A stretch of 64,000 nt of DNA from an uncultured virus (IMG/VR IMGVR_UViG_3300006213_000002) (lineage: Duplodnaviria > Heunggongvirae > Uroviricota > Caudoviricetes), in IMG/VR virus record IMGVR_UViG_3300006213_000002, positions 62,001 through 126,000 of that record. One strand, written 5' to 3'. This document shows, piece by piece, positions 3,697-60,026 of the stretch. A model generated the notes under the pieces. That model searched no databases. It had not been told where the DNA came from and was given only the letters and a program-made list of their open reading frames with translations. A program made the position numbers and the translations under genes. Each line of letters opens with the position of its first letter. Within the stretch, counting starts at the first letter, position 1.

Positions 3697-3797
3697 TGCG
3701 TATTCCTCCTTTTATTTGGCAATGTTTATTTTGTTAATCACCTTGTATCATATATAAAAAGTTTTTATTACATGATACAAATAAAGAATATATCATT

Positions 3798-5194
3798 TTA
3801 TTCTATATCTTCAATTATATCATCTGGATTTAATGTATATAATGTTACTACACTGACATGCTTTGCTTTCAATGCCAAATTTAAATCAGCATGTGAAATT
3901 TGTATACCAAATAATCCAGCATATTCAATATCCAACATATAGAATAGTCTACCTGCACACTTCTCACATATACATTCATCTTTGCATGACATAGGTGATC
4001 TCATTTTAACTGTTTTACCTACATATTTATTTATATTATCTTTGGTTAATAATACAAGACTATCACCTTCTGCAATATATGTATATAATACATTATCTTT
4101 ATTCTTTTTAGTAATTTTTAATGGTATAAGATTTTTAGTACCGCAGTCTGTTCCTTCTGCTGCACATCTCATCATCTGTAATAATGCCAAAATCTTCTTT
4201 CCAAGATATCCAGCATCAGCAGTACCAATAGATGCTGGGAATTGAGATGCTAATATACTATTAGCATGTGCAGGTATATCATGTACATCTATACCATCCA
4301 TAAATGATGTACCAATGAAATCATATTCATTAGTAATTTTATTTAATACTGCACCTTTGATAATAGAATTATTTTTATAATTATTAGCAAAATCAAGATC
4401 ACCTGATAAATATAAATCCATACCAGGATCATCTTTTAATAATTCTTTTGCATAATCAATTAATTCTTTACTAATATTAGTCATAACATCTACATTACCA
4501 CTAGCTAATTCTTTTTCATATTTTTTAATTAATTCTTTCTTTTTAGCTGTTATCTCTGGTAAGGGACTTAACATTTTTTCTGATAATGTATGTGCTAACA
4601 TTCCATTCAACCAATAACCAAGATTATCTCGTCTATCTACATAAGCATTAAATTCTTTTTTACCTATTTTATTCTCTTGCCATAATTGAGCAATCAAATT
4701 ATCAAGATCACCTAGTTTACCCTTATTTATAACTTCATTGATATAATGAGTTAAAGATATAACTCCTGATCCTTCTAATAAGAATTTATTCATAACGAAT
4801 CTACCTATAGTAGTATCAATCTTTGGTTGATTATTATAGAAATAATTTGCAGGTACTACAAATTTATCCCATGTATTATGTTTGCATTTAATTTTCTTAG
4901 TAGAATTACCATTAGTACAATCCACTCTATCAGCAAACATTTTTGTTAGAAAAGATAAAGTAAAATTATCTGGATTCATATTTATATAAGTTAAATGATC
5001 TGATTCATTTACTAACTTAGCTTCTTTTCCATCTTTAGTTAATTCATAGAAAGAGTTAAATACCTCTTTAGCTGTTACTTTAGCATTAGTACCTGTTATA
5101 GCTAAACAACTCATTTTAGTACCCATAATCATTTCTGCTTCAGCATTAGCTTCATCAGAATATATACCTCTTTCTGATACCTGATCTCCATCAA
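3798..5194 (-). CDS. rpoC: RNA polymerase beta'-like subunit, exon 2
   Basis: Starts TT GAT GGA GAT CAG (..F D G D Q); bridge helix TADAGYLGKK, DCGT, RSPMSC..CEKC zinc site, trigger-loop-like ALKAKH; spliced CDS 2808 nt = 935 aa. Confidence 0.9.
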
Positions 5195-5216
5195 CATATA
5201 CAAGAAACTTTTTTAT

Positions 5217-5228
5217 TTATATATTATA
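5217..5228 (+). promoter_or_regulatory. intron-internal promoter motif upstream of the antisense endonuclease
   Basis: TTATATATTATA, the same motif found upstream of many non-structural genes in this window. Confidence 0.55.
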
Positions 5229-5303
5229 TTTATCGAGCATATACAGTATAATAAGTGAAGAGATAGTCTACCAGTTGCTTGTGAAAAGAAAAGGAGACTA
5301 ACT

Positions 5304-6170
5304 ATGAAAGAAGATATTATAAAACAAAACCGTGAAATGTTAAAATTATTTATTAACAATAGACCTATAGCAAAAGATTATCAAATTGATAGAAATCATT
5401 TTGGTCTACCATTTGGATACATATATTGTATTGAAAACCTTAAAAATCATAAAAAATATATAGGTTCTACTTATTCTAATTGGACAGGTGTTCCTGAAAC
5501 AAATACTATTGTTCAATTAAGAAAAAGAGCATCTGACTATCTTTATGAATATAATATGATTATGAAAAATAAAAATTTAACCACAGCAAGTAGATTTAAT
5601 AGACCTATTATTCAAGCTATGGTAGCTGAAGGCTTTAATAACTTTATTATGTATCCAATGGCTGAAACAACAAAATTTGATCATAATGAAAAAGAAAAAT
5701 ATTTCATTAACTTCTTTGATACTATTAAAAATGGATATAATATAGTAAGAGGAGGAGCATCCAATAATAGAATTGGAACAAAGTTAATGGCTAGAGATAA
5801 ACTCCTCAGATCTGAAGGTGTTATATGTATCCATGTTAATAATAAAAAGATATTATTTTCTGATTCTATGAAACTCTTTGGAGACTATATGAATAGCTCT
5901 AAAGATATGATCAAAAACTCTGTACGCAAAGGTAGACCTTACAAAGGTTGGTTTATATTTTATATTAATCCTGATAAAAGAGCTTATATCCTAAATAAAA
6001 ATGTATTAGGAGATGGATTGCCTGTAGGTGACCGCCATTCAGATAAATCTAAACAGTTTTATCAGGAATTATATACTACTGTAAATTTATATTTAATGGA
6101 TAATGCTAAATCAGATCAATTTCCAGGATTTGAATTATTACCACCATTAGAATATAAAGATGAAAAATAA
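5304..6170 (+). CDS. GIY-YIG homing endonuclease, antisense to the host intron
   Basis: GYIYCIENLKNHKKYIGST, EKYFINFFDTIKNGYN; AAAGGAG RBS. Confidence 0.9.
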   Translation: MKEDIIKQNREMLKLFINNRPIAKDYQIDRNHFGLPFGYIYCIENLKNHKKYIGSTYSNWTGVPETNTIVQLRKRASDYLYEYNMIMKNKNLTTASRFNRPIIQAMVAEGFNNFIMYPMAETTKFDHNEKEKYFINFFDTIKNGYNIVRGGASNNRIGTKLMARDKLLRSEGVICIHVNNKKILFSDSMKLFGDYMNSSKDMIKNSVRKGRPYKGWFIFYINPDKRAYILNKNVLGDGLPVGDRHSDKSKQFYQELYTTVNLYLMDNAKSDQFPGFELLPPLEYKDEK

Positions 6171-6545
6171 TAAATAAAAAAGTTAATTGAAATTGGACTA
6201 TCTCTTCACCCAAAGAAATATAAAAATAAAATTCTATGGAGAGTGGCACTTCGAAATACAGCATTCCACCATATTCCTACATAACTAGTCTCTACACTTG
6301 TTCCTCGATATCATATCGATTCTTTAGCACGGTATTAAAATCTATCCTATTATATAGGAAATCATTATCTCTTATGAAGCGTATTCGACTGTTTAAATTA
6401 GATATATCGGGCTATTATATATCCCAGCTTATTTAACTTCTACCGTTAGCAATAATAAAATCATATTATCACACCGCTTGTTAAGCGTTCACCACTTTAT
6501 TCTTGTAGAATATTACTATTCTAGCCGACCCCAATTTTGAAATCA

Positions 6546-7956
6546 AATCGGCACCCATACCATCCAGATGTGCATTTGCCATAACCAATGTATCTATAAA
6601 TTGAATGCCCACCTTGTCTTCTTCTGTATTAAAATTAATATCAGGATAAAAAGGATACTCTTTTCCATTAAATATCAATTTAATATGTCTACGTGTTGAT
6701 GATACTCTTATCTTATTAAAATAAATACCCTTGTCTGTACCAACTGGGTATCTGCTAACCATAATATGACGTTTTTCACATACATCAACACATGCTAAAT
6801 ATAATAGATCCGTTACAGTCATTGCTCTATTTAGAACTGTACTTGCATTATTAGGTAATATCACTTTACCTTTCAATATCACAGAGCATTTCTTTACTAT
6901 AGAGCCTTTTTGTAATGGAATTTCAACATCAACAATTAATTTTTTAAATCTATTATCTGGATTTAAAATATAATCATTAATAATCTTTTTAATATTTTTT
7001 TCAGAAAATTGAGCTTCAGCATCTTTTATACTACCTACTACTTCTCTATTCGTTTCTTGATCATAGAAAACTATTGCATTTGGATCATTAATAATTTCTC
7101 TTTGAAAGAAATTAGTTAACCATGCTTCAATAAATGGATAGAATAATGAACAACAATGTGATATTGGTACTGCTGAATGATCCATATCTACCATACTATC
7201 TTCTAATCGCTCATTATTATAATTATTAGATGATATAACTGCTCTAGTACCATAATCAACTGATTTACCCAATAGATTCTTTCTAATCAAACCATGTTTT
7301 TTTGATATTTGATTTTTGAAATAATCTATTATTTCTACTAATGTTTCTTGTACTTTATATTGAGTAGAATATTGTCTATATGCAAATATTCCTCCCTCTG
7401 ATAATAATGCTACTGATCGTAATAATTTTAAATATAAATCATTTAATTCATTTACATGATCACTATTATCAATTGTACCTGCAATAGTTACATCACGATA
7501 TGCAGGAGGACATACTAACATTTTATCAATAAAAACATCATCTCTTTTTAATGTCTTCATTAATTCTTTATTAACTTGATTGGCTGATTTACTTTTACTC
7601 CAATCAATTTCATCCCAATGTTCATATAATTTGTCTATACCTGTCCATCCTGTTTCATCTTCAACCATTATGCCATCGCGTATAATAAATTTTCTTTGAC
7701 CTGAAATACAATATGTGATATTACGTTGCATTCGTTTAATTACTTTATCATATAAATGAGGATGAATAAAATGACGTTTTAATGTAATATATGCAAATGT
7801 ACTTCGTCTATCACTTTTAGATTGACCAAATATATCATGTGATAATAATCCACCTGGCTCAAATGTCATCTTATTTGAAAACAATCGCACAGACGTTACT
7901 TCACGTAATTTATTAACATCAATTAATGTATCAATATCTAATAAATCAATTTTCAT
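6546..7956 (-). CDS. rpoC: RNA polymerase beta'-like subunit, exon 1
   Basis: GLLSHDIFG, FAYITL, CPPAYRD, KHGLIRKNLLGKSVDY, SRYP; ends ...GMGAD at the intron. Confidence 0.9.
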
Positions 7957-8074
7957 TATATTTATCTCCTTTCTTTAATAAACTTTATAATCACTGTAAC
8001 TAAATAAGAGCAATATAAGATAGGACCATATGGTCCTATCTTATATCACATGAATTGAGAGTTGTGAGCATATA

Positions 8075-8548
8075 TCAAATATTAGAAGTTGTCTTTTTCA
8101 TTTTGTAATCATAAACAACTTTTTCAATCATATTGTCTATAATTACTTCTAACTGTTCCTTTCCACCAATGATAGTCAATAGATCACTATCATCATCTTT
8201 AAGTTGAGGTGGTAATGATGCCATTATACATTCTTTAGCAGCATCTAATAATATCTGCTTTTGTTCATCAGTAAGCTTAGGACATTCAATTTTAAATTGA
8301 TCTGCTGTTTGCATATTTGAACCTACTGCTGTTTCTACGATCTTTTGTAATTGCTCCAAAAGCAATGTTTTAATTGTATTCTTTTGTGATATAGATTCAA
8401 GGTCATTTTTTGCAATGATAGAATCTACAATTTTCTTTCCATAGCTTTTAACTATTACGACTGCACTTGAAGCTAATGCTAAAAGCAATGGAATCATAAT
8501 TGAATTAATTAAAATATCTAATACTTCATTAATAGTTTGAGTTGACAT
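8075..8548 (-). CDS. putative holin-like membrane protein
   Basis: Single N-terminal hydrophobic helix, then IVETAVGSNMQT...LTDEQK, reminiscent of LL-H-type phage holins. Confidence 0.45.
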   Translation of the reverse strand: MSTQTINEVLDILINSIMIPLLLALASSAVVIVKSYGKKIVDSIIAKNDLESISQKNTIKTLLLEQLQKIVETAVGSNMQTADQFKIECPKLTDEQKQILLDAAKECIMASLPPQLKDDDSDLLTIIGGKEQLEVIIDNMIEKVVYDYKMKKTTSNI

Positions 8549-24500: not shown

Positions 24501-26765
24501 ATCAGAATAATCATAATCATCCATTATTTTTACTATATAATCAAAATAAGATGGTATCCATGTTTTATTAAGATACATTTCATAATTAGTAATTCTTTTA
24601 TATCCTAAAAATTTTTCATTGATACTTTCTTCTAATTTAGATATAGCATCATCAAAAGGAAATTCATAATGTTCACTTTTTAAATATGTAGCTATACCTA
24701 ATTTGAAATATGGATCCATTGTTTCTAAAAATAATTTGTTAAATCTTTCATATGAAGGATTATCAATTATATACTCTATAATTTGCCATCTAGTATTCGT
24801 TGTTAATAATCCTTTATATATAGATTTTATTCCCATCCAATAGAATTTTTCCATAAAAATATCTCTATAAACTGATACTTGATCAAAATGATATTCTTCT
24901 ATATCGTTATCCCATATAGGAGATGATTCTATAATATCTCTATATTGATCTAATACATTCATAGTATCATTATAAAAGAAAAATGATTTAAAAATTCTAT
25001 TCAGAGTAGGTTCTTTTTCTTTTCCATCTCTGAGTAAATATACATCAGGAAAATGATTTTCTACTATCAAAGGTGATGGTCTCCATACTTTATCATCAGG
25101 GAAATATTCAAATGTCCAAAAATCGCTATTTTCTATAGGTCTTTGAAATCTAACTTTATCTTTATAAAAATCTTTTTCTTCCCATAATACTTTTTTACTC
25201 ATAGAATGAATAATATTTACCATATAATAGCTATCAGCTAGTTCTCTAGGTATAAATATACATGGTGATATCATGAACCAAAAATCAGATTTACCATCTA
25301 CTATATTATCAGTAGGAAATCTATCTAATAAATCACTTGAGCTTCCTTCATTTCTTAATTGATCCATAGCTATTATAAATCTTTTATAGAATTTTTCATA
25401 TTCTTGATCATATTCTATCAATAATACATCTAATAAATCATGATCAGCTTGATGTATTTTTTCCATTATATCTAATAATTTATCAATATAATCATTAAAT
25501 CTATTATCTGCTATATTATCCTCTAATAAATAGAATCTAAATTCTTCTATTATATCAGCACCTTTAATAGTTAAATCTCTAAGATTATTTATATAATCTA
25601 CTAAGGATTCATATGGTTCTTCAAATTCTACAAAAGCATCTGATAATACTATGGGTCTAATAATTTTAGTCCATCCATCAAACTTTTCTTTCATGTGACC
25701 ATTAATATCAACATAAACTTGTTTATTAGTATCATTCTTATTAATTTTTGCATGTTGTACTATATAATTTTTCATTGTTGATACTGGTTGAAAATTAGGT
25801 TGATATGGTCTATATATAACATCTGTAGGTAATAATACTGGATATTCATGAAAGTATTTAGGTACCATTATAGACATCCATAAATATTCTTTCGCTTCTG
25901 AATTAATAATTTTTTTATTAAAATCACTAATAGAATTTAAATTAATATATCCATCCTTTATATTTAAAAATTCTAAATTATCGCCTAATGCATCTATATA
26001 TTCTGCATTATCATTTCTTTCATTAATATCAGCAATTCTATTAATAGCTACCATAATTTTATCAACATTAGTAATTCTACTATCATTAATATAATTTATA
26101 GGTAACAACCAATTCCATTGATTATTACATAATTCTCTACTAATTTTTATTCTACATGAAAAATTAGTATCGAATTTATAGATATAAACAGGATAATTAT
26201 TTTTTACCCAATGATCGTAATAATCAAATCTTATAGTAACTTCATGATCATCTATTCGTAATAAATATTCTGAATATATTCTTTTATTAATAAATAATAA
26301 ACATGCAAATTTGAATATATCCCAATTATTTAGTATATCCTGAATATCTATCCATTTTCTATAAAACTGTGATAATTTAAATTTATCACGTTGAGATGGT
26401 GGTATAAATTGATCTATAGGAATCACAAAATCACATATATTTACATTTTCTAATAGATTTAAATCTTTCATTCTACCATTCCATTGATAAAAATTACAAC
26501 TATCATGATTACTTGCTTTTAGTTTATGACTATTATTCAAATAAATATCTTTTAAAGTATTTCTTAATGCTTCTTCATTAAAAGAATTATTCAATACAGC
26601 TTCATTTCTAAATATAGATGATCTACTACCATCTTTATCAGGTATATGATATCCTTGTTCTATAATATCATTTGTATTGAATAATTGAGTAGCAGTAGAA
26701 GTATATTTATCAAATGCTTCACTATACCATTTTGGATCAAATGGACTCCATCTGTCTCTATCCAT
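18549..26765 (-). CDS. very large putative virion structural protein (2738 aa)
   Basis: Long ORF, helical middle region, three related segments (SGGFKHQEGD, SGIGYRVGD, PGAGYAVGQ) of a kind common in tail/baseplate proteins; function inferred. Confidence 0.6.
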   Translation of the reverse strand: MDRDRWSPFDPKWYSEAFDKYTSTATQLFNTNDIIEQGYHIPDKDGSRSSIFRNEAVLNNSFNEEALRNTLKDIYLNNSHKLKASNHDSCNFYQWNGRMKDLNLLENVNICDFVIPIDQFIPPSQRDKFKLSQFYRKWIDIQDILNNWDIFKFACLLFINKRIYSEYLLRIDDHEVTIRFDYYDHWVKNNYPVYIYKFDTNFSCRIKISRELCNNQWNWLLPINYINDSRITNVDKIMVAINRIADINERNDNAEYIDALGDNLEFLNIKDGYINLNSISDFNKKIINSEAKEYLWMSIMVPKYFHEYPVLLPTDVIYRPYQPNFQPVSTMKNYIVQHAKINKNDTNKQVYVDINGHMKEKFDGWTKIIRPIVLSDAFVEFEEPYESLVDYINNLRDLTIKGADIIEEFRFYLLEDNIADNRFNDYIDKLLDIMEKIHQADHDLLDVLLIEYDQEYEKFYKRFIIAMDQLRNEGSSSDLLDRFPTDNIVDGKSDFWFMISPCIFIPRELADSYYMVNIIHSMSKKVLWEEKDFYKDKVRFQRPIENSDFWTFEYFPDDKVWRPSPLIVENHFPDVYLLRDGKEKEPTLNRIFKSFFFYNDTMNVLDQYRDIIESSPIWDNDIEEYHFDQVSVYRDIFMEKFYWMGIKSIYKGLLTTNTRWQIIEYIIDNPSYERFNKLFLETMDPYFKLGIATYLKSEHYEFPFDDAISKLEESINEKFLGYKRITNYEMYLNKTWIPSYFDYIVKIMDDYDYSDRWIKRPRSTFDIKRFLPILQQTQIDIKNELREINLIIKWILEMLDRESYNLNISNITDLKEYVSIMENNMKEVIDNTANLDLDIYSIDDINIIIRLLSLHKTLTDAINGMQMNIYNDTIEKKVYIQKRMDIENIVTSIIELKLHIDHMSDIIQTFDMEKFMKVTNDLETYFVYNKVNLNDKSLLGHINQFNDPWSVDVKEKRNKLFQSTAILYGNFDSEKSYTYEEIDEFLTSLDNVMTDTIEFKDSINNFYEKFDYEVDKTVIDRLDQISYMLYNDFIVIIERYKGYREELLECINTIETLLSELEKYNISDTEKSYLSTILADLSKIIYALSYIAGINNAKDANNAYDDIQNNISKWMEFINTEESVFLSIIDFTNPENKYLINIEEINKTLTVLMEYMDSVNIEYKPDIQCPTYSDIYEIDKIEMVSGGFKHQEGDYVFIKNLGTYQIDSIENNICIASSISEVNYRTTSFRDPCWQQYIYDSITSGDGMGIMIKAISSKHTVIINDEIVDQIIMSIKNGLYLIRKNLKSYNSYNNNTFEHDLKTLSDIETKWSNILDDFGTHISNNSKQYVDQLIQPLSGLIESCNRFMERRNHITIGELLSQINEFIKDIYKYANNNDLVNKDFIYYSDKFKLIRNKLSEFYGNGTTWENGKKLSDILTEVNLGIVFYKENVLDIFEINPDIENFIDEFNNIIKFISFIKSEIISIPSTISTMIDPTIERLEKNIKNKPELQKDKWYMFHKAGIAESGIGYRVGDIVEIIPQLPTDKNGNEIHDMEDIILNDVILLQVMKVEYGEVVEVEPMMNYAIPYLIWGIRETITRVGIGNGLKIDAYSYEIGIGDMTYFNPLKADILTLPQFNENDLFMYKFENIHDLNIKYDVFLGGNQITNYIHRHFTIDELAENHMQPRGIDAIYINANQLMELQKSKLDITNSHSFIYRLDRLDVKDPGAGYAVGQNIYVDVGEFAIKLRVTELDGTPFKGIKEVALINENINIDESTDCNEAKVINDTLNNIDDEFHNCKYDLLPQEGITKPATSSFANITITTKRYTDTESGDRNEKFLYPDVSIPGPTDKTTYGDSDEGWYQGSRIDNSVSNTKDERVWNGIQNVIPPSDNIISDEKRLPPNQPLKGEYQSIVRQRIHNSEGETNNLTNKKYHNGSILNSAMTKGDITVATYNDIPKHINDYPGIKVGKVVIVLTDETNNSHRTLYTVRTFSPNGYIVYDLPEICDMSWNHFLVDWMNIDCYQDYPTMKAQYPSADWRAENTYMNIENSILEGRVIGTSMPKIMNNTSYIKDITVNDISVFNWTKHEWEDLHSEKWELIVTEDIDNKIFNFKLFYYEEGIYSYDMELFLNKTPETLKKNAVLKKDAIFSIKTTIVGEVNKQAIDTLVHTGRHLRIRKLFPYEQTESYTIGFDRNGEFLGYEMDFKIANYMHFKNELHLEDIKVYNRTAGRYEDILDRSLFEVRFKDDKSETQGWETNTRILQSLIGKSGANFHDGPVWCYNSEYDVTVFGIVTADYKKDGHIITFKPIHFINAPEENIALEFNVFQKDFQTEVQMAIIVIEFITEKVEVFGDGYIHNVINPLAPLPKEFKIISQLDLNRPFEYDIILDKTPKRYTFIEPKWLMNPTFHIKNENVPQDRVYILTEKGRFPLINPSTNKPTLHVVNTQNGTDVTFMNLYRRYEHMNICVTPYPMRSVYVKRRIPSHGFINLKGKLNKPLNKKYFEFWVNGKLLHDEVTIITPTKLILHGLKSLKNFEIIEINRDSNEYFSDNFYEVETSTYGRPYYGWDYDTYLDAALECRLGKDNYTEEEQEYLLSPIWKQVSEDHPEFKNYPPNVDIEDDVLLRTNPEDYPINDLENPSYQFLVINQPTLEGKAIVEQTLTFRHFGYIPITNQMLIDIMNEVWGDEINDNPYFPEHTVLTNDDWYGLSTRLYDEYGVLVHILNNAAYHVTGRSMLKINTKNKISRIIPNPVIYDLT

Positions 26766-52198: not shown

Positions 52199-53758
52199 AT
52201 GGCAAAATATCAAGATGATGTATATGACCATTTAAAATCTGATATTGATAAAATTAGAGTAAGATTTAGGCAATATATATCATATTCAAATGAACAAGGA
52301 GCAAAGTCTGTAGTAGACGAGATAATTTATAATGCTCTTGATGAATGTAAGAATCCAAGATCTCCAGGTGATACTATTCATATTGTAATGGATGATAGAG
52401 ATGGATTTATTACTGTGACAGATAATGGTAGAGGTATACCTACTAATTTATTAGAGGAATTATTTACATCATTAAATATGGGATCTAATATTAATACATC
52501 AAATAAATCAGATTTAAAAGTAGAAATATTGGGTCAAAATGGTACTGGAACACTTGCTATATGTGGTTTAGCAGAACATGTAGAGATTACTTCATATAGA
52601 GGTGGTACAGAAAATATTAGTAAGACATTAATATTTGAAGAAGGAAAAAAGATCCATGAAGAAGAGCATAAATGTGATAAAAATAAACATGGATTATGTA
52701 TTAAATATAAACCTTCTAAAGTCATGGGTAAAAATACTAAAATAGTTTGGGATCCAGTCCATAAAGGATTATTAGATTTACAGTATTTAAATCATAATAG
52801 AATAAAGATAGATTCTGTTCATTATGATAAAAATGGAGATTATACTGAAGAGAAATATAAGATCTTAAATTTTGATGATATTTTATTACGTAATGATCCT
52901 GAGTCAATTACAAGTAGTAAAATATTGATCAATATTAAAGATGATAATATATTAGAAGAATTTGAAGATATGTCTGTAAAAAGATTTTTAGATATGGATA
53001 TAGCATTTGCATATGTAAATAAGTTAAATCCATATATAGATAGTTTTTCAAATTCAAACAATACGGTTGATAATGGCGATCATTTAGATGGTGCATTGGA
53101 AGCTATTTGTAGATATTTTCAATTAGCAACAAAGAATATGCTATCAGAGAAAGAAAAAGAATCTCTTGATATCAAATGGGATGATGTTAAAACAGGATTA
53201 TCTATAGTAGTATCTTTACGTACTGATTATGAAAGATTATATACTGGACAGACTAAACATAAAGTTGTTAATGGAGATATTAGAAAGATTATAATTAATC
53301 TTACAATAGAGGCGTTAACATCATATTTTAGTAAGAATAATAGTCAGTTAAAAGAATTATGCATGATAGTAAAGATGAATGCAAAAGTACGTCGAGAAGG
53401 TGATAAAGTACGTACAGCAGTAATCAAAAATACAATAACTAATTGGTCATCATACAAGATGAAAAATTATGATCCGTGTACAAGAAAAGGAGTTAAGGAA
53501 TATAAAGAAATATTTATTATTGAGGGAGATAGTGCAAAAGGTAGTTTAAAGAATGCTAGATTTCCTGAATTTCAAGCACTATTTAGTATACGTGGCGTTA
53601 GCTTGAATGTTTTCAAAGCAACTATAGATCAAATATTTGGTCCTAAAGGTAATAAAGAATTTACTGATTTAGTAACTATATTAGGATGTAATGTAGGACC
53701 TAAATTCGATTTAAGTAAACTTCAGTTTAGTAAGATTATTATAGCATCAGATGCGGAT
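52199..53758 (+). CDS. gyrB: DNA gyrase/topoisomerase II subunit B, exon 1
   Basis: EIIYNALDE, DNGRGIP, GQNGTG, GQTK, EGDSAKG; ends IIASDAD. Confidence 0.9.
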
Positions 53759-54965
53759 AAATTATCTATGTCCGCTTAAAATTCTTTTAATTGCTGGGAG
53801 TTCTTGTTAAGTTAATTCAACCGCGGTATTATAGTAATATAATATGCAGCATATATCATAATGGATATAGGATGGTAAAATCGAATTAAATAGAGATAAT
53901 CAGCAAATAATTATATTGATTCTAATTTTAATTATAAATTACTAAAGAAAGGAGGTATATAATAATATGAAATATAATAAATCTATGTTAAATAATGCAT
54001 ATAATGATTTATTACAAGAAAAAGATATTAGATCTATGGAATTATTTGATAAACATTATTGTGAATTATCAATAGCAGAAATAGATAAATTAGAAAAATA
54101 TATGTATGATTTATCTAATCCTATATGGAAACCTATAATGATAGATGGTAAAGATAGTGGATATAAGATTAGTAATATAGGTACAGCAGTTGATTCAAAT
54201 AATAATGAATTAAAATATTATCAAAATTCATCTGGTTATTTAGTTATCTGGATTCATATAAAAGGTAAACGTAATAATGTACCTAAATCTATTCATAGAT
54301 TAGTAGCAGAATCATTTATTCCTAATCCTGATAATAAATCAGAAGTGAATCATATTAATTGCAAACAAAATATGAATTGGGTTGGAAATCTTGAATGGGT
54401 AACGCATGAAGAAAATATACGATATATGATAAATTGTGGTAATCAAGTTATAGGAATGAATCATAAAAACTCTAAGTTTACTGATGAACAAATACATTTA
54501 GTTTGTAAAATGCTTGAAAATCCTAATAATGATATTAAAACTATTTCAGAAAAAACTAAAGTATCACTTAGAACTATTCAAAATATAAGATTTTATAATG
54601 GGTGGAATCATATAAGTGGATTATATAATATAAATAGATCTAAGTATGTTAAAGGTCCTAAATTTAGTTATGTTTCTAAAATAATATCCGATATGGTTAA
54701 TAACGGAAAAACAAATTCTGAAATACGAAATAAATTGCATGAATTAGGTTTAGATTTAAATATAACAAGTAAGAGTATTAGTGATAGAATATATCATATA
54801 CGAAAATTAGAATCAAATAAAACTTCATCGACTATCGAAAAGCTATGATATAGGATTATTAACCATATCAATATAGTTAGTAGAGTATACTTATAATAGT
54901 AGAAATGAAGGACATTATGAAGATATAGTCACAACATTTATAGAAATATAAAGATAAGATAATTG
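53759..54965 (+). mobile_element. group I intron (1207 nt) in the GyrB TOPRIM motif
   Basis: P1 GCGGAU/GUCCGC with U.G; P10 AUCUAU/GUGGAU; AATTGCTGGGA 53789-53799, AATCAGCA 53898-53905, TTCATCGACTA 54824-54834, GAAGATATAGTC 54919-54930; terminal G. Confidence 0.92.
53967..54848 (+). CDS. intron-encoded NUMOD4-HNH homing endonuclease
   Basis: WKPI...YKISNIG (NUMOD4-like); IHRLVAESFIPNPDNKSEVNHI...NLEWVTHEENI; AAGGAGG RBS. Confidence 0.9.
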   Translation: MKYNKSMLNNAYNDLLQEKDIRSMELFDKHYCELSIAEIDKLEKYMYDLSNPIWKPIMIDGKDSGYKISNIGTAVDSNNNELKYYQNSSGYLVIWIHIKGKRNNVPKSIHRLVAESFIPNPDNKSEVNHINCKQNMNWVGNLEWVTHEENIRYMINCGNQVIGMNHKNSKFTDEQIHLVCKMLENPNNDIKTISEKTKVSLRTIQNIRFYNGWNHISGLYNINRSKYVKGPKFSYVSKIISDMVNNGKTNSEIRNKLHELGLDLNITSKSISDRIYHIRKLESNKTSSTIEKL

Positions 54966-55886
54966 GTGGATGGATTATTTATTAGAAGTCTACTTATGGC
55001 ATTCTTCTTTAGAGTATTACCAGAAATTATTTTGGATGGTAGATTATATATAGCAGAACCACCTCTATATAGAGTTGATAATCCAAAAGATCCATTTGTA
55101 ATTAATAAAGAAGATTATAACAATCGATATGTAAAAGAGTGTATGAAATATTATCAGATAGGATATCCTATTATAGATAATGGAGTAATAGTTGACGTTA
55201 ATATTTTAAATAAAAATGATATTAAAGAATTATTATCTGATACATCATCTTATGTTAAAGACATAGAATTATTAGCTAATCATTATAGGATTAATGAAAG
55301 ATTATTTGAGATAATAATTGAAGAAGTAGCATTAATGAATATCGATGTCAATTTATGTGCAGATATACAGAAGGATATTATTGATAAAATCAATATACAA
55401 CATCTTGTGACAAGAATACAAGCAGAATTTCCAGAAGTATATTATGATGACAAATTTAAGTTAATACGAGGATCAATAAATACTGTTAGACAATTAATTG
55501 AATTATCACCTAACATAATTAAGAAGTCTAAAGTAATAATTAATTATATTATAAAATGGAAAACTGCACAGACTAAATTAGTATTAAGAGATAATAAAAC
55601 AAAAGCAGAAAGATTATTATCATTATTAGAATTATTAAAAGTTTTAAGAAAATATCAACCTGATATCAAGCATCGTTTTAAAGGTTTAGGCGAGAATGAT
55701 ACAGATGATATACGAAAGACTATTATGGATCCTAATACTAGATCACTTATAAAAGTAAATATAAGTGATATAGAAAATGATGAAAAAATCTTTCAGATGT
55801 TAAGGGGTGGAACTGCACAAAATGCATTAGATAGAAAAAATATGATGCATAATTATAGTATACCAGTCGAGTTAATTGATACGTAA
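54966..55886 (+). CDS. gyrB: DNA gyrase/topoisomerase II subunit B, exon 2
   Basis: VDGLFIRSLL, AEPPLY, RFKGLGE, MDPNTR; spliced product 826 aa. Confidence 0.9.
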   Translation: MDGLFIRSLLMAFFFRVLPEIILDGRLYIAEPPLYRVDNPKDPFVINKEDYNNRYVKECMKYYQIGYPIIDNGVIVDVNILNKNDIKELLSDTSSYVKDIELLANHYRINERLFEIIIEEVALMNIDVNLCADIQKDIIDKINIQHLVTRIQAEFPEVYYDDKFKLIRGSINTVRQLIELSPNIIKKSKVIINYIIKWKTAQTKLVLRDNKTKAERLLSLLELLKVLRKYQPDIKHRFKGLGENDTDDIRKTIMDPNTRSLIKVNISDIENDEKIFQMLRGGTAQNALDRKNMMHNYSIPVELIDT

Positions 55887-58408: not shown

Positions 58409-58514
58409 ATTTAATTCCACATCCTTTCTTATATTATTGAATATTTCATATAATGTATTATATATTATAATATTGAAGTAAAGATGAAATACATATGAAA
58501 AGGAGAAATTCATC

Positions 58515-58622
58515 ATGAAAAATATTTTAATTGCACCGAAAAGAAAGAAAAAGATTATCGTAAATGATAATGCTGCTTTTCAAATCCGGCTCAATAAAAT
58601 TTTAAAGGAAGAGAAAAAATAA
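58515..58622 (+). CDS. 35-aa basic peptide (not in ORF track)
   Basis: MKNILIAPKRKKKIIVNDNAAFQIRLNKILKEEKK; AAAGGAG RBS; promoter motif 58458-58469. Confidence 0.55.
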   Translation: MKNILIAPKRKKKIIVNDNAAFQIRLNKILKEEKK

Positions 58623-58652
58623 AAATGAATTTAGTGAAAAGGGGAATGAATT

Positions 58653-58859
58653 ATGGAATATGCATTTTCAGCTATGAGAGGATTAACAAAAAAAGATGTA
58701 AAGGTAATATTTAACATTGCAAATGATCCAAACAATGTTAAGACAATTCAATCCGCAGATGTGATTATTTATCCGAACGGCGTTGTAAGAATCAATGATC
58801 TTAAGGATATGCAGGAGATTATTTCCAGTATTAATAATGTTACGATCTTTTCAAAATAA
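58653..58859 (+). CDS. small hypothetical protein
   Basis: 68 aa, AAGGGG RBS, followed by a terminator at 58876-58907. Confidence 0.65.
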   Translation: MEYAFSAMRGLTKKDVKVIFNIANDPNNVKTIQSADVIIYPNGVVRINDLKDMQEIISSINNVTIFSK

Positions 58860-58906
58860 AAACTGAATAATGAGAAAGGGTGATTTTAAAATCACCCTTT
58901 ATTTTT

Positions 58907-59458
58907 TTATAAAAATACTGGTTTATTTTTTGTAGAATTTCCCTTTAATACTTTATTAGCATTATATCCGCTCATATTAAGAAATTTTTCCATCATTGGA
59001 TGAAATCTATTATTCATTTCATCTATAAATTTATCTGTGTATTCTGTTATCATTCCAATATATTGCGAATCTATATCTTCTGATTTCAAATTACTAATAC
59101 ATTCATTAATATTTTTAATGGTATTATTTATTCCTGATATATATGATTCTATAAATTTTGGTATTTCATTATATTTATTTTCTGTATCTTCAAATAATTG
59201 GGTATCAATATACCCAATACCAGCTTCATATATAACTTTATATGGAGATGAATTTTTATTGTTTGATTCTTCTATTATGTATTTACAGCATTTATTTACA
59301 TACTCATTAAATCTATCAAATGCCTCATTAATATTAAATAATGTTATTTTGTAATCTTTTATATTTAAACCCCATTCATTTGCTAATTCATTTATAGAAT
59401 CCATCATACCTCGATTATATTTTTCAAGAAATTCTTTTATAGCATTATCAATTTTCAT
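58907..59458 (-). CDS. hypothetical helical protein
   Basis: 183-aa ORF, AAAGGAG RBS. Confidence 0.7.
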   Translation of the reverse strand: MKIDNAIKEFLEKYNRGMMDSINELANEWGLNIKDYKITLFNINEAFDRFNEYVNKCCKYIIEESNNKNSSPYKVIYEAGIGYIDTQLFEDTENKYNEIPKFIESYISGINNTIKNINECISNLKSEDIDSQYIGMITEYTDKFIDEMNNRFHPMMEKFLNMSGYNANKVLKGNSTKNKPVFL

Positions 59459-59768
59459 ATATTAAAACTCCTTTCTTATAATAAACGCTTAAATTATATA
59501 CACGTTTCTAAATTCAATGATATATTATTAGTGTAGATATAAATAAAATTATATCTTATTTCATATATTTTTTCTTTATATTAATTTACTGCTACTTTTA
59601 TAAATAATAAATTTCTCCTTTCATATTGGATTATATATAAATTACTCCAAATATTATAAGGGTAGCAGTAATTAATATTATATGAAATATTAATTTTGAA
59701 ATAAACATGAATTATTTTCATGCTTATTAATATATTAATAAAGTTTTAATTTTAAGGAGGAATTTAAA

Positions 59769-60026
59769 ATGAGTAACATTGAAGAAAAGTATCTTTTAAA
59801 AGATGGAGAAACAGTGCCTGAGGGTTATGTTGTAAAAACATGTGAAGTATGTAACAGATCATTTGCAATGCCTGCAGATGTTGCAGAGAAATCAGGACCA
59901 ATTTGTGAGTCAGCTGAGTGCAAAAATGAATATGAAAGAAGATGCATAGAGCAAACAAAAGCTCTTATGAAATCAGATACAGCAACGCAAACAGAAGCGG
60001 AAATCAAAACAGCACTTGGAAATTAA
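59769..60026 (+). CDS. small Cys4 zinc-finger-like protein
   Basis: CEVC...CESAEC; AAGGAGG RBS. Confidence 0.7.
   Translation: MSNIEEKYLLKDGETVPEGYVVKTCEVCNRSFAMPADVAEKSGPICESAECKNEYERRCIEQTKALMKSDTATQTEAEIKTALGN

Follow-up and report, generated by a model that had tools for sequence, protein, structure and literature searches.

An inverted copy of a ribozyme core strand in the leader of an intron-encoded endonuclease

We analyzed a stretch of 64,000 nucleotides (nt), hereafter the window, that corresponds to bases 62001-126000 of the 135-kb record of an uncultured virus of the Caudoviricetes (IMG/VR IMGVR_UViG_3300006213_000002). In it, a predicted group I intron interrupts the gene for the β' subunit of a jumbo-phage RNA polymerase and carries, on the strand opposite to the ribozyme, a gene for a putative GIY-YIG homing endonuclease. 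The leader of the endonuclease gene contains a 14-mer, GTGAAGAGATAGTC at 5255-5268 (+), which is the exact reverse complement of 6196-6209 (-), i.e. the strand of the ribozyme core that comprises the end of the P8 helix, the J8/7 joining segment and the 3' strand of the P7 helix (P7'). We refer to this strand as S and to its inverted copy, as read in the intron RNA, as anti-S. An earlier note made from the sequence of this DNA had reported a perfect 14-bp inverted copy of S, and the two arms are indeed complementary at every position. Our preferred reading, held tentatively and at a probability of about 0.45, is that a templated event recently produced this element as an inverted copy of the P8-end/J8/7/P7' strand of the same intron, and that it is tolerated by the phage but not selected.

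These two are the only exact occurrences of the 14-mer in the 64-kb window; a third site at 54917-54930 has two mismatches to it and is the S element of another intron. A repeat finder recovered the pair as 14 nt of 100% complementarity with the arms 927 nt apart, together with a second pair (5201-5220 and 6170-6189; 20 nt, 90%) that crosses the first. The window has 24 perfect inverted repeats of at least 14 nt with arms within 1500 nt, as against a mean of 4.0 in 100 first-order Markov simulations of the window; most of these 24 are hairpins with closely spaced arms that resemble terminators, and those that are long-range and A+T-rich fit the chance expectation. The 14-mer, however, holds 6 G/C in a genome of 26% G+C, and simulated perfect repeats of this length with at least 5 G/C are so rare (mean 0.08; any at all in eight of the 100 simulations) that the pair is confirmed as real and beyond a chance match.

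The edges of the copy are sharp, its flanks are dissimilar, and all 14 pairs are of the Watson-Crick type with no G.U among them. Such an exact and sharp-edged copy fits copying better than stepwise selection for pairing. It also matches the S variant of its own intron, GAGAUAG, while three sister introns in the genome have GAUAUAG. Its origin would most likely lie in a templated DNA event, namely a strand or template switch during replication or the repair of a double-strand break.

The copy is confined to one phage lineage

Relatives of the endonuclease are encoded at 13 loci in viral and metagenome contigs, of which one is identical and 12 show 45-61% identity; additionally, a second β'-like gene of the same genome has an intron that encodes a paralogue (51% identical). 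At all 12 related loci, as well as at the in-genome paralogue, the endonuclease gene is antisense to the intron and the complement of S follows shortly past its stop codon, at a distance of 5-33 nt in the ten loci where it was measured. Ten relatives have a readable leader (L014-L019, L023, L024, L026 and the 51%-identical paralogue), and none of these leaders contains a copy of the S of its own intron, the best match being 9-10 of 14 positions at unrelated places. There is likewise no exact leader-to-core complement of at least 10 nt containing G/C in the relatives. The energy of the duplex between the leader and the 3' region falls below z = -2 relative to 200 shuffles in two of 11 loci (the window and L015), which is not a consistent signal. 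Leader folds nearing that of the window are predicted in two of the ten relatives (L014, z -1.72; L026, z -2.84), with the hairpin adjoining the ribosome-binding region in L026 only. As none of the ten carries the copy or an analogue of it, the sequences indicate that the inverted copy is private to this phage lineage and absent from the related introns. The earlier note had looked to covariation of the two copies across related phages; the second copy is missing in all ten, and the intron family works without one.

An exact 16-mer search with the leader across 2.9 million viral contigs returned 58 stretches. Of these, 57 are unrelated, with flanks that match at the level of chance, and fall for the most part in one recurring conserved stretch; the remaining one is the same phage. 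No donor for the leader was found among these 58 stretches.

At least 0.86 of the sampled words of the phage are present in each of 20 public runs, which stem from nine studies and for the most part carry the label mouse gut. Two runs of a single study may be the source, and no RNA run was among those listed. This wide distribution suggests that the repeat is at least not strongly harmful. Over 1.7 kb, the contigs of four runs (four studies) depart from the window at six positions, and neither arm of the repeat is affected. These population contigs are too alike to inform on selection, and what they show is carriage of the copy by a successful lineage. The variable sites lie at window positions 5228, 5398, 5632, 5668, 6240 and 6254, the lineage being nearly clonal across studies from 2018-2025. 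No strand-changing joint is present in the contigs of the four runs, although contigs can miss rare inverted forms. One apparent joint that skips from 5394 to 6091 (1742 other letters between, 21-letter side) was rejected, being made up of short matches to a different contig.

The intron splits the catalytic motif of the β' gene

Two long minus-strand frames, at 6481-7956 and 3798-5216, match phage RNA polymerase subunit families in PHROG. Exon 1 (6546-7956, minus strand; PHROG 2986, E 1.3e-73) ends in ..MGAD plus U6546, as established by alignment with gp212 of phage BpSp and the β' subunit of phage SA1, and exon 2 (3798-5194, minus strand; PHROG 2962, E 5.8e-61) begins with UU GAU GGA GAU.. 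(F-DGDQVS..). Between them lies the predicted intron of 1351 nt (5195-6545, minus strand), with its 5' splice site after U6546 and G5195 as its last base (omega-G). Splicing rejoins GAD-F-DGDQVS, the catalytic magnesium-binding motif of β', which the intron splits as GAD/F/DGD. The uninterrupted homologues from Bacillus phage BpSp and Staphylococcus phage SA1 have the form ..ALG[GA]D[YF]DGD[TM][VI]S.R.., with the junctions GGDYDGDTVS and GADFDGDMIS. A single splice rule (U at position -1, G as the last intron base and an F/Y junction codon) restores G[AG]D[FY]DGD in six of seven homologous loci, while L019 obeys it only with a shifted phase. Two introns of the metagenome relative L024 (1918-2360, minus strand) are separated by a very short exon, in that the S element of one lies only about 30 nt upstream of the 5' splice site at which the DFDGD-site intron begins.

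The same locus, with an identical endonuclease, is carried by a 289-kb viral contig. A megablast of 3700-8000 against phage records gave zero matches. Among annotated genes, the two exons are closest to g145 and g264 of AR9, which are both given as virion RNA polymerase subunits. We also observed that the N- and C-terminal halves of the spliced β' form one frame (window 3798-7956, minus strand), whereas in AR9 (g145 and g264), BpSp and SA1 they are separate genes 45-100 kb apart.

Structure of the predicted ribozyme

Eight homologous introns align well and yield a consensus fold of 83 pairs, 42 of which show compensatory changes. All elements are on the minus strand. P1 (6524-6552) pairs the exon sequence GCCGAUU (6552-6546) with the guide GGUCGGC (6530-6524), placing a U.G at the splice site, and has compensatory changes at two pairs (columns 6-7/37-38). 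P2 (6506-6523) is a hairpin with a GUAA loop of the GNRA type, and all seven of its pairs show compensatory changes in at least one of the eight sequences. The 5' strand of P3, AGUGGUG (6490-6496), has its partner at 6248-6242 (columns 67-73/382-388; two pairs compensatory), while in P8 (6209-6240), formed by 6240-6232 with 6217-6209 (columns 390-398/597-605), eight of nine pairs are compensatory. The R element GAGACUA (6286-6292), which includes the 5' strand of P7, GACUA (6290-6286), is invariant in all eight aligned introns. In the S arm (6196-6209), G6209 closes P8, UGAAGAGA (6208-6201) forms J8/7 and UAGUC (6200-6196) is the 3' strand of P7 that pairs with GACUA. The resulting order of P3 (6496-6490), P7 (6290-6286), P3' (6248-6242), P8 and P7' (6200-6196) is that of the group I pseudoknot. 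Covariation is seen in P3 and P8. P7, R and S do not vary among the eight introns and hence furnish no covariation evidence for P7. There is also a hairpin that lies between P7 and P3', as is usual for introns of subgroup IA.

A long-range P9-like stem follows, with its 5' arm at 6170-6189, overlapping the antisense of the endonuclease stop codon, and its 3' arm at 5201-5220, with the omega-G 5 nt further on. The stem has 18 of 20 positions paired (-13.0 kcal/mol), starts 6 nt past P7 and encloses the entire antisense endonuclease gene; shorter equivalents are seen in L015, L017 and L018. The eight-intron alignment upholds the earlier assignment of 6196-6209 to J8/7-P7', and the order along the intron RNA of S, stem arm 1, antisense endonuclease, anti-S and stem arm 2 is also as previously described. 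As a separate observation, a local 9-bp hairpin (6199-6220, minus strand) can form between UAUUUCUUU, which is the 3' strand of P8, and GAAGAGAUA of J8/7; in the pseudoknot-free minimum-energy fold it is this P8 strand that partners S, which points to a second possible misfold of the core.

No Rfam family reaches its gathering score in the window (the threshold of RF00028 being 50 bits). RF00028 was absent from two permissive cmscan runs (E up to 10) that covered the region and four loci and returned only unrelated families at the level of chance; a search of the genome with RF00028 gave a weak match of 19.6 bits (E 6.5e-4) at window 6175-6335 (-). The assignment to group I is supported by P1, the omega-G, the pseudoknot, the R and S elements and the restored protein, and splicing activity is predicted. 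Across loci a more solid and well-supported picture emerges from the sequences, namely that of a conserved family of group I introns that interrupt the DFDGD motif of β' genes in jumbo phages, with an antisense GIY-YIG gene in a P9-like loop. Members occur in both β'-like genes of this phage and in at least 12 other contigs, and are missed at the Rfam gathering threshold.

The endonuclease gene and its leader

The endonuclease gene (5304-6170, plus strand) encodes 288 amino acids and matches PHROG 5123, 'homing endonuclease with GIY-YIG motif' (E 2e-9). The motif ..GYIYCIEN..KYIGST.. is seen in its translation, and the match to Pfam PF19835 stands at 18.5 bits (E 0.0025), under the cut-off of 25. 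By reading of the plus strand, a Shine-Dalgarno sequence AAGGAG was located at 5291-5296, and the adjoining GAGACUA (5294-5300) repeats the R heptamer of the ribozyme. Further upstream there are two candidate promoters on the plus strand: ATTTATATATTAT at 5215-5227, which resembles the early consensus of phage AR9 and is followed by a G 7 nt later, and TATAAT at 5247-5252, likewise found by reading. According to the AR9 report (PMC5312081), the early-promoter consensus of that phage is AAATATATATTAT-(6N)-G, and an intron open reading frame (ORF) inside a late AR9 gene has its own early promoter. A consensus scan for promoters was uninformative, as it returned 33 promoter-like sites where 30.0 were expected. 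Nor does the genome show any enrichment of TATATATTAT, which occurs 12 times as compared with about 16 expected. It may be remarked that TATATATTAT (window 5215-5227 and 11 further sites) resembles the core of the AR9 early promoter, and that most of the 12 sites, judged by eye from their printed flanks, are followed within about 90 nt by a ribosome-binding site and start codon. One of these belongs to another intron, where it precedes the sense ORF (G000 27511, minus strand). A search elsewhere in the genome for the promoter-plus-leader motif (AGTATAAT, TATAATAAG) found nothing resembling the context of the 14-mer. In a consensus scan of 4800-8200, the only terminator-like site lies upstream of the endonuclease gene and on the opposite strand; the plus strand has none in this range, including the stretch past the endonuclease stop.

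The leader is predicted to form a hairpin of -10.4 kcal/mol (z -2.06 against 200 shuffles), in which the 3' half of the copy, UAGUCU, pairs with AGACUA beside the Shine-Dalgarno sequence. In an RNA that ends before 6196, positions 5293-5300 are predicted to be paired with a probability of at least 0.95, and the mean probability of 5291-5297 being unpaired is 0.27; with the 3' element included, the latter rises to 0.63. This 3' element, the antisense of S, sits 26-39 nt past the endonuclease stop. If the transcript passes 6209, a 14-bp helix between the 5' and 3' untranslated regions is predicted with a probability of 0.91-1.0 for four assumed transcript ends.

Origin and possible roles of the inverted copy

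If the copy is a young and tolerated accident, it would constitute in the pre-mRNA a potential trap for P7 that is avoided by the order of transcription. By the time anti-S is transcribed, the polymerase would have left the ribozyme core about 940 nt behind and the core would have been able to fold, and anti-S could initially be taken up in a local hairpin formed with the complement of the ribosome-binding region. In the endonuclease transcript, pairing of the copy with the antisense of S would be an unavoidable by-product. Several observations weigh against this account. No relatives at 70-95% endonuclease identity were found, and absence of the copy at 45-61% identity would indicate only that it is not ancestral, rather than that it is unselected here. 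A perfect complement of the core in the intron of an essential gene should come at a cost, yet it is intact in four runs, which is a mild argument for either youth or benefit. Further, a high probability of forming the pair is predicted for both RNA strands. The leader copy pairs with the ribosome-binding region, an arrangement of the type that regulates the intron endonucleases of phage T4 (PMC2988022). Finally, microhomology able to prime a template switch is not visible at the edges of the copy.

The strongest functional alternative, which we regard as possible but doubtful, is that the pairing was selected in the endonuclease mRNA. Here, the leader copy would mask the Shine-Dalgarno sequence until the polymerase passes the stop and copies the antisense of S, whereupon the helix between the two untranslated regions would free the ribosome-binding site and close the ends of the mRNA; as S cannot change, its antisense would serve as a fixed 3' partner. 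The predicted masking of 5293-5300 by the leader hairpin, its relief by the 3' element and the high probability of the 5'-3' helix agree with this scheme. The absence of a plus-strand terminator-like site in 4800-8200 makes read-through plausible, and both the hairpins at the ribosome-binding sites of the T4 intron endonucleases (PMC2988022) and the early promoter of the AR9 intron ORF (PMC5312081) could be counted as precedents. On the other hand, a start about 7 nt after TATAAT would drop part of the 14-mer from the RNA. Among the relatives, the leader folds of L014 and L026 alone approach that of the window, only the latter being adjacent to the ribosome-binding site, and there is no consistent 5'-3' complementarity. 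The hairpin is moreover automatic once S adjoins a GGAGACUA ribosome-binding site, and another gene in the genome has the same site; the support for the scheme is thermodynamic prediction throughout. Of the ideas in the earlier note, that of an endonuclease mRNA folding back on its own 3' extension has the most in-silico support, provided that the assumed ends past 6209 hold, but its corollary that the intron core is thereby shielded fails, as a 14-nt mask cannot shield an antisense stretch of about 375 nt.

A splicing switch, as also envisaged in that note, appears unlikely. It would have anti-S take S, break P7 and cross P9, with the result that splicing and β' output need anti-S to be masked, for example by the antisense endonuclease mRNA or a local hairpin. 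The competition does exist on paper: S:anti-S pairing is predicted at -21.6 kcal/mol versus -4.4 for R:S (P7) and -13.0 for P9, and in the pseudoknot-free ensemble of a 1392-nt precursor S:anti-S has a probability of 0.49-0.53 and P9 one of 0.31-0.42, the two being mutually exclusive. However, the model omits the P3-P7 pseudoknot and tertiary contacts and hence overrates the competitor, the core folds about 940 nt ahead of anti-S, and the first step of splicing needs neither P9 nor anti-S. There is also no evident trigger, and gating an essential catalytic subunit by a 14-nt trap would be risky. The copy is absent at the same site in 10 of 10 related introns, which presumably splice without it; with neither a copy nor an analogue in any of them, it is not part of the working of the family. 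Comparable doubt attaches to a selected device acting on both strands, in which a 5'-3' helix in the endonuclease mRNA is joined to an anti-S that shuts the core or couples splicing to the antisense RNA. In such a device, ribosomes would load only on transcripts that extend past the stop, and the core would be shut after the whole intron has been made; the purely Watson-Crick character of the 14 pairs would then be explained by the need for pairing in the one transcript as well as in the other.

Less probable still is an element that acts at the level of DNA, either as inverted protein-binding sites flanking the endonuclease gene, comparable to the operator of I-TevI, or as a site for inversion of 5269-6195. 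One arm is located 3 nt past TATAAT and 28-41 nt past the AR9-like early promoter motif, and I-TevI is described as repressing its own promoter via an operator that resembles its homing site (PMC2988022). However, the leader scores no better against the exon junction than its shuffles do (best local score 8.0, shuffle mean 8.87; 252 of 300 shuffles at least equal), and the 14-mer with its flanks is matched by 263 of 300; a homing-site mimic of the I-TevI type in the leader was therefore rejected. Inversion of 5269-6195 would turn the arms of P9 into direct repeats and destroy P9, and the ORFs examined beside the intron include no recombinase gene. The inversion check raised in the earlier note found a single orientation in the contigs of the four runs, from which rare variants can drop out. 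The same note had suggested a relic of a block of S, P9 and endonuclease captured in reverse from a sister intron, and this we consider the least probable of the readings. The copy immediately precedes the endonuclease gene, the place that S would occupy had the gene once been sense and downstream of it, and a U follows S in two sister introns just as it follows the leader copy. Yet all 12 related loci and the paralogue are already antisense and none of the ten readable leaders keeps a copy, such that it would have had to decay fully in every lineage but one and remain perfect there. The copy furthermore has the S variant of its own intron rather than that of the sisters, and its flanks match only the same phage among the 58 exact 16-mer stretches. 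Both the reverse capture and the invertible segment are hence disfavored.

Relationship to known systems

The closest parallels in phages are the T4 td intron with I-TevI and the T4 nrdB and nrdD introns, which, like the intron described here, are group I introns (IA-type) in essential genes with a GIY-YIG gene in a peripheral loop (PMC2988022). The available text of that source describes the expression of the T4 intron endonucleases as limited by their own promoter and a hairpin at the ribosome-binding site, and notes that translation within the intron can disturb splicing; it contains no description of long-range 5'-3' pairing. The T4 endonuclease gene is in the sense orientation whereas the one described here is antisense. 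What the T4 operator imitates is the homing site; the present repeat is a copy of the S element of the ribozyme, with no homing-site mimic found in the leader. Also among the nearest known systems are g145 and g189/g190 of Bacillus phage AR9. The former (the N part of virion RNA polymerase β') is joined from three pieces, and its introns hold g146 and g147; the AR9 endonuclease genes are, however, on the strand of the host gene, as opposed to the arrangement seen here.

Phage PhiPA3 offers a further parallel in gp210, a homing endonuclease in a putative group I intron of a multisubunit RNA polymerase gene of a jumbo phage. It differs in being an HNH enzyme in the β subunit gene, and neither an inverted core copy nor an antisense orientation is described in the part of the report at hand (PMC11620839). 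An endonuclease gene opposite to the ribozyme strand is found in the nuclear rDNA L2066 group I introns; these are, however, eukaryotic, with endonucleases of the His-Cys box family that are expressed via spliceosomal introns and Pol II signals (PMC9548176). The fold-back predicted here for the endonuclease mRNA would open the ribosome-binding site, unlike that of hok, to which there is no homology. In the hok/sok system, the product of which is harmful, the two ends of hok mRNA pair with each other (fbi) and thereby decide access to the ribosome-binding site, the fold-back closing translation until the 3' end is processed.

An inverted copy of a ribozyme core in an endonuclease leader was not found described in a full-text search of the literature, although this is no proof of absence. 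Phage group I introns that carry homing endonucleases are a known kind of element, and the private copy would be a new feature among them. If it is a tolerated accident, it offers a natural experiment in which an essential group I intron coexists with a perfect 14-nt complement of its core in a phage frequent among mouse-gut data sets, and bears on how far co-transcriptional folding shields ribozymes from later competitors. If it is selected, it would represent a new coupling of homing-endonuclease expression to the host ribozyme, with the unchangeable core as a fixed pairing partner.

Other loci in the genome

The second β'-like gene of this phage lies outside the window (G000:C1:24700-29200, minus strand), has an N-terminal zinc-ribbon motif and is interrupted by three group I introns. 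One of these, at about 28.55-28.25 kb, is ORF-less; another has a sense ORF (27467-26725) whose start appears HNH-like by eye; and the third, at ..DGD.., combines a sense ORF of 121 amino acids with the antisense GIY-YIG paralogue (24955-25809; 51%). Within the window, two perfect 14-bp pairs cross each other at 58440-59870 (58440/59678 and 58715/59857, the latter with 5 G/C); they surround a 183-amino-acid ORF of no known family, and no intron features were seen there. At 52199-55886 (+), the gene for a topoisomerase II large subunit is split by a group I intron with a sense HNH gene (53967-54848). The S element of this intron is at 54917-54930, and a perfect 14-bp pair (53916/54803) flanks its ORF and probably forms the stem of the ORF-bearing loop.

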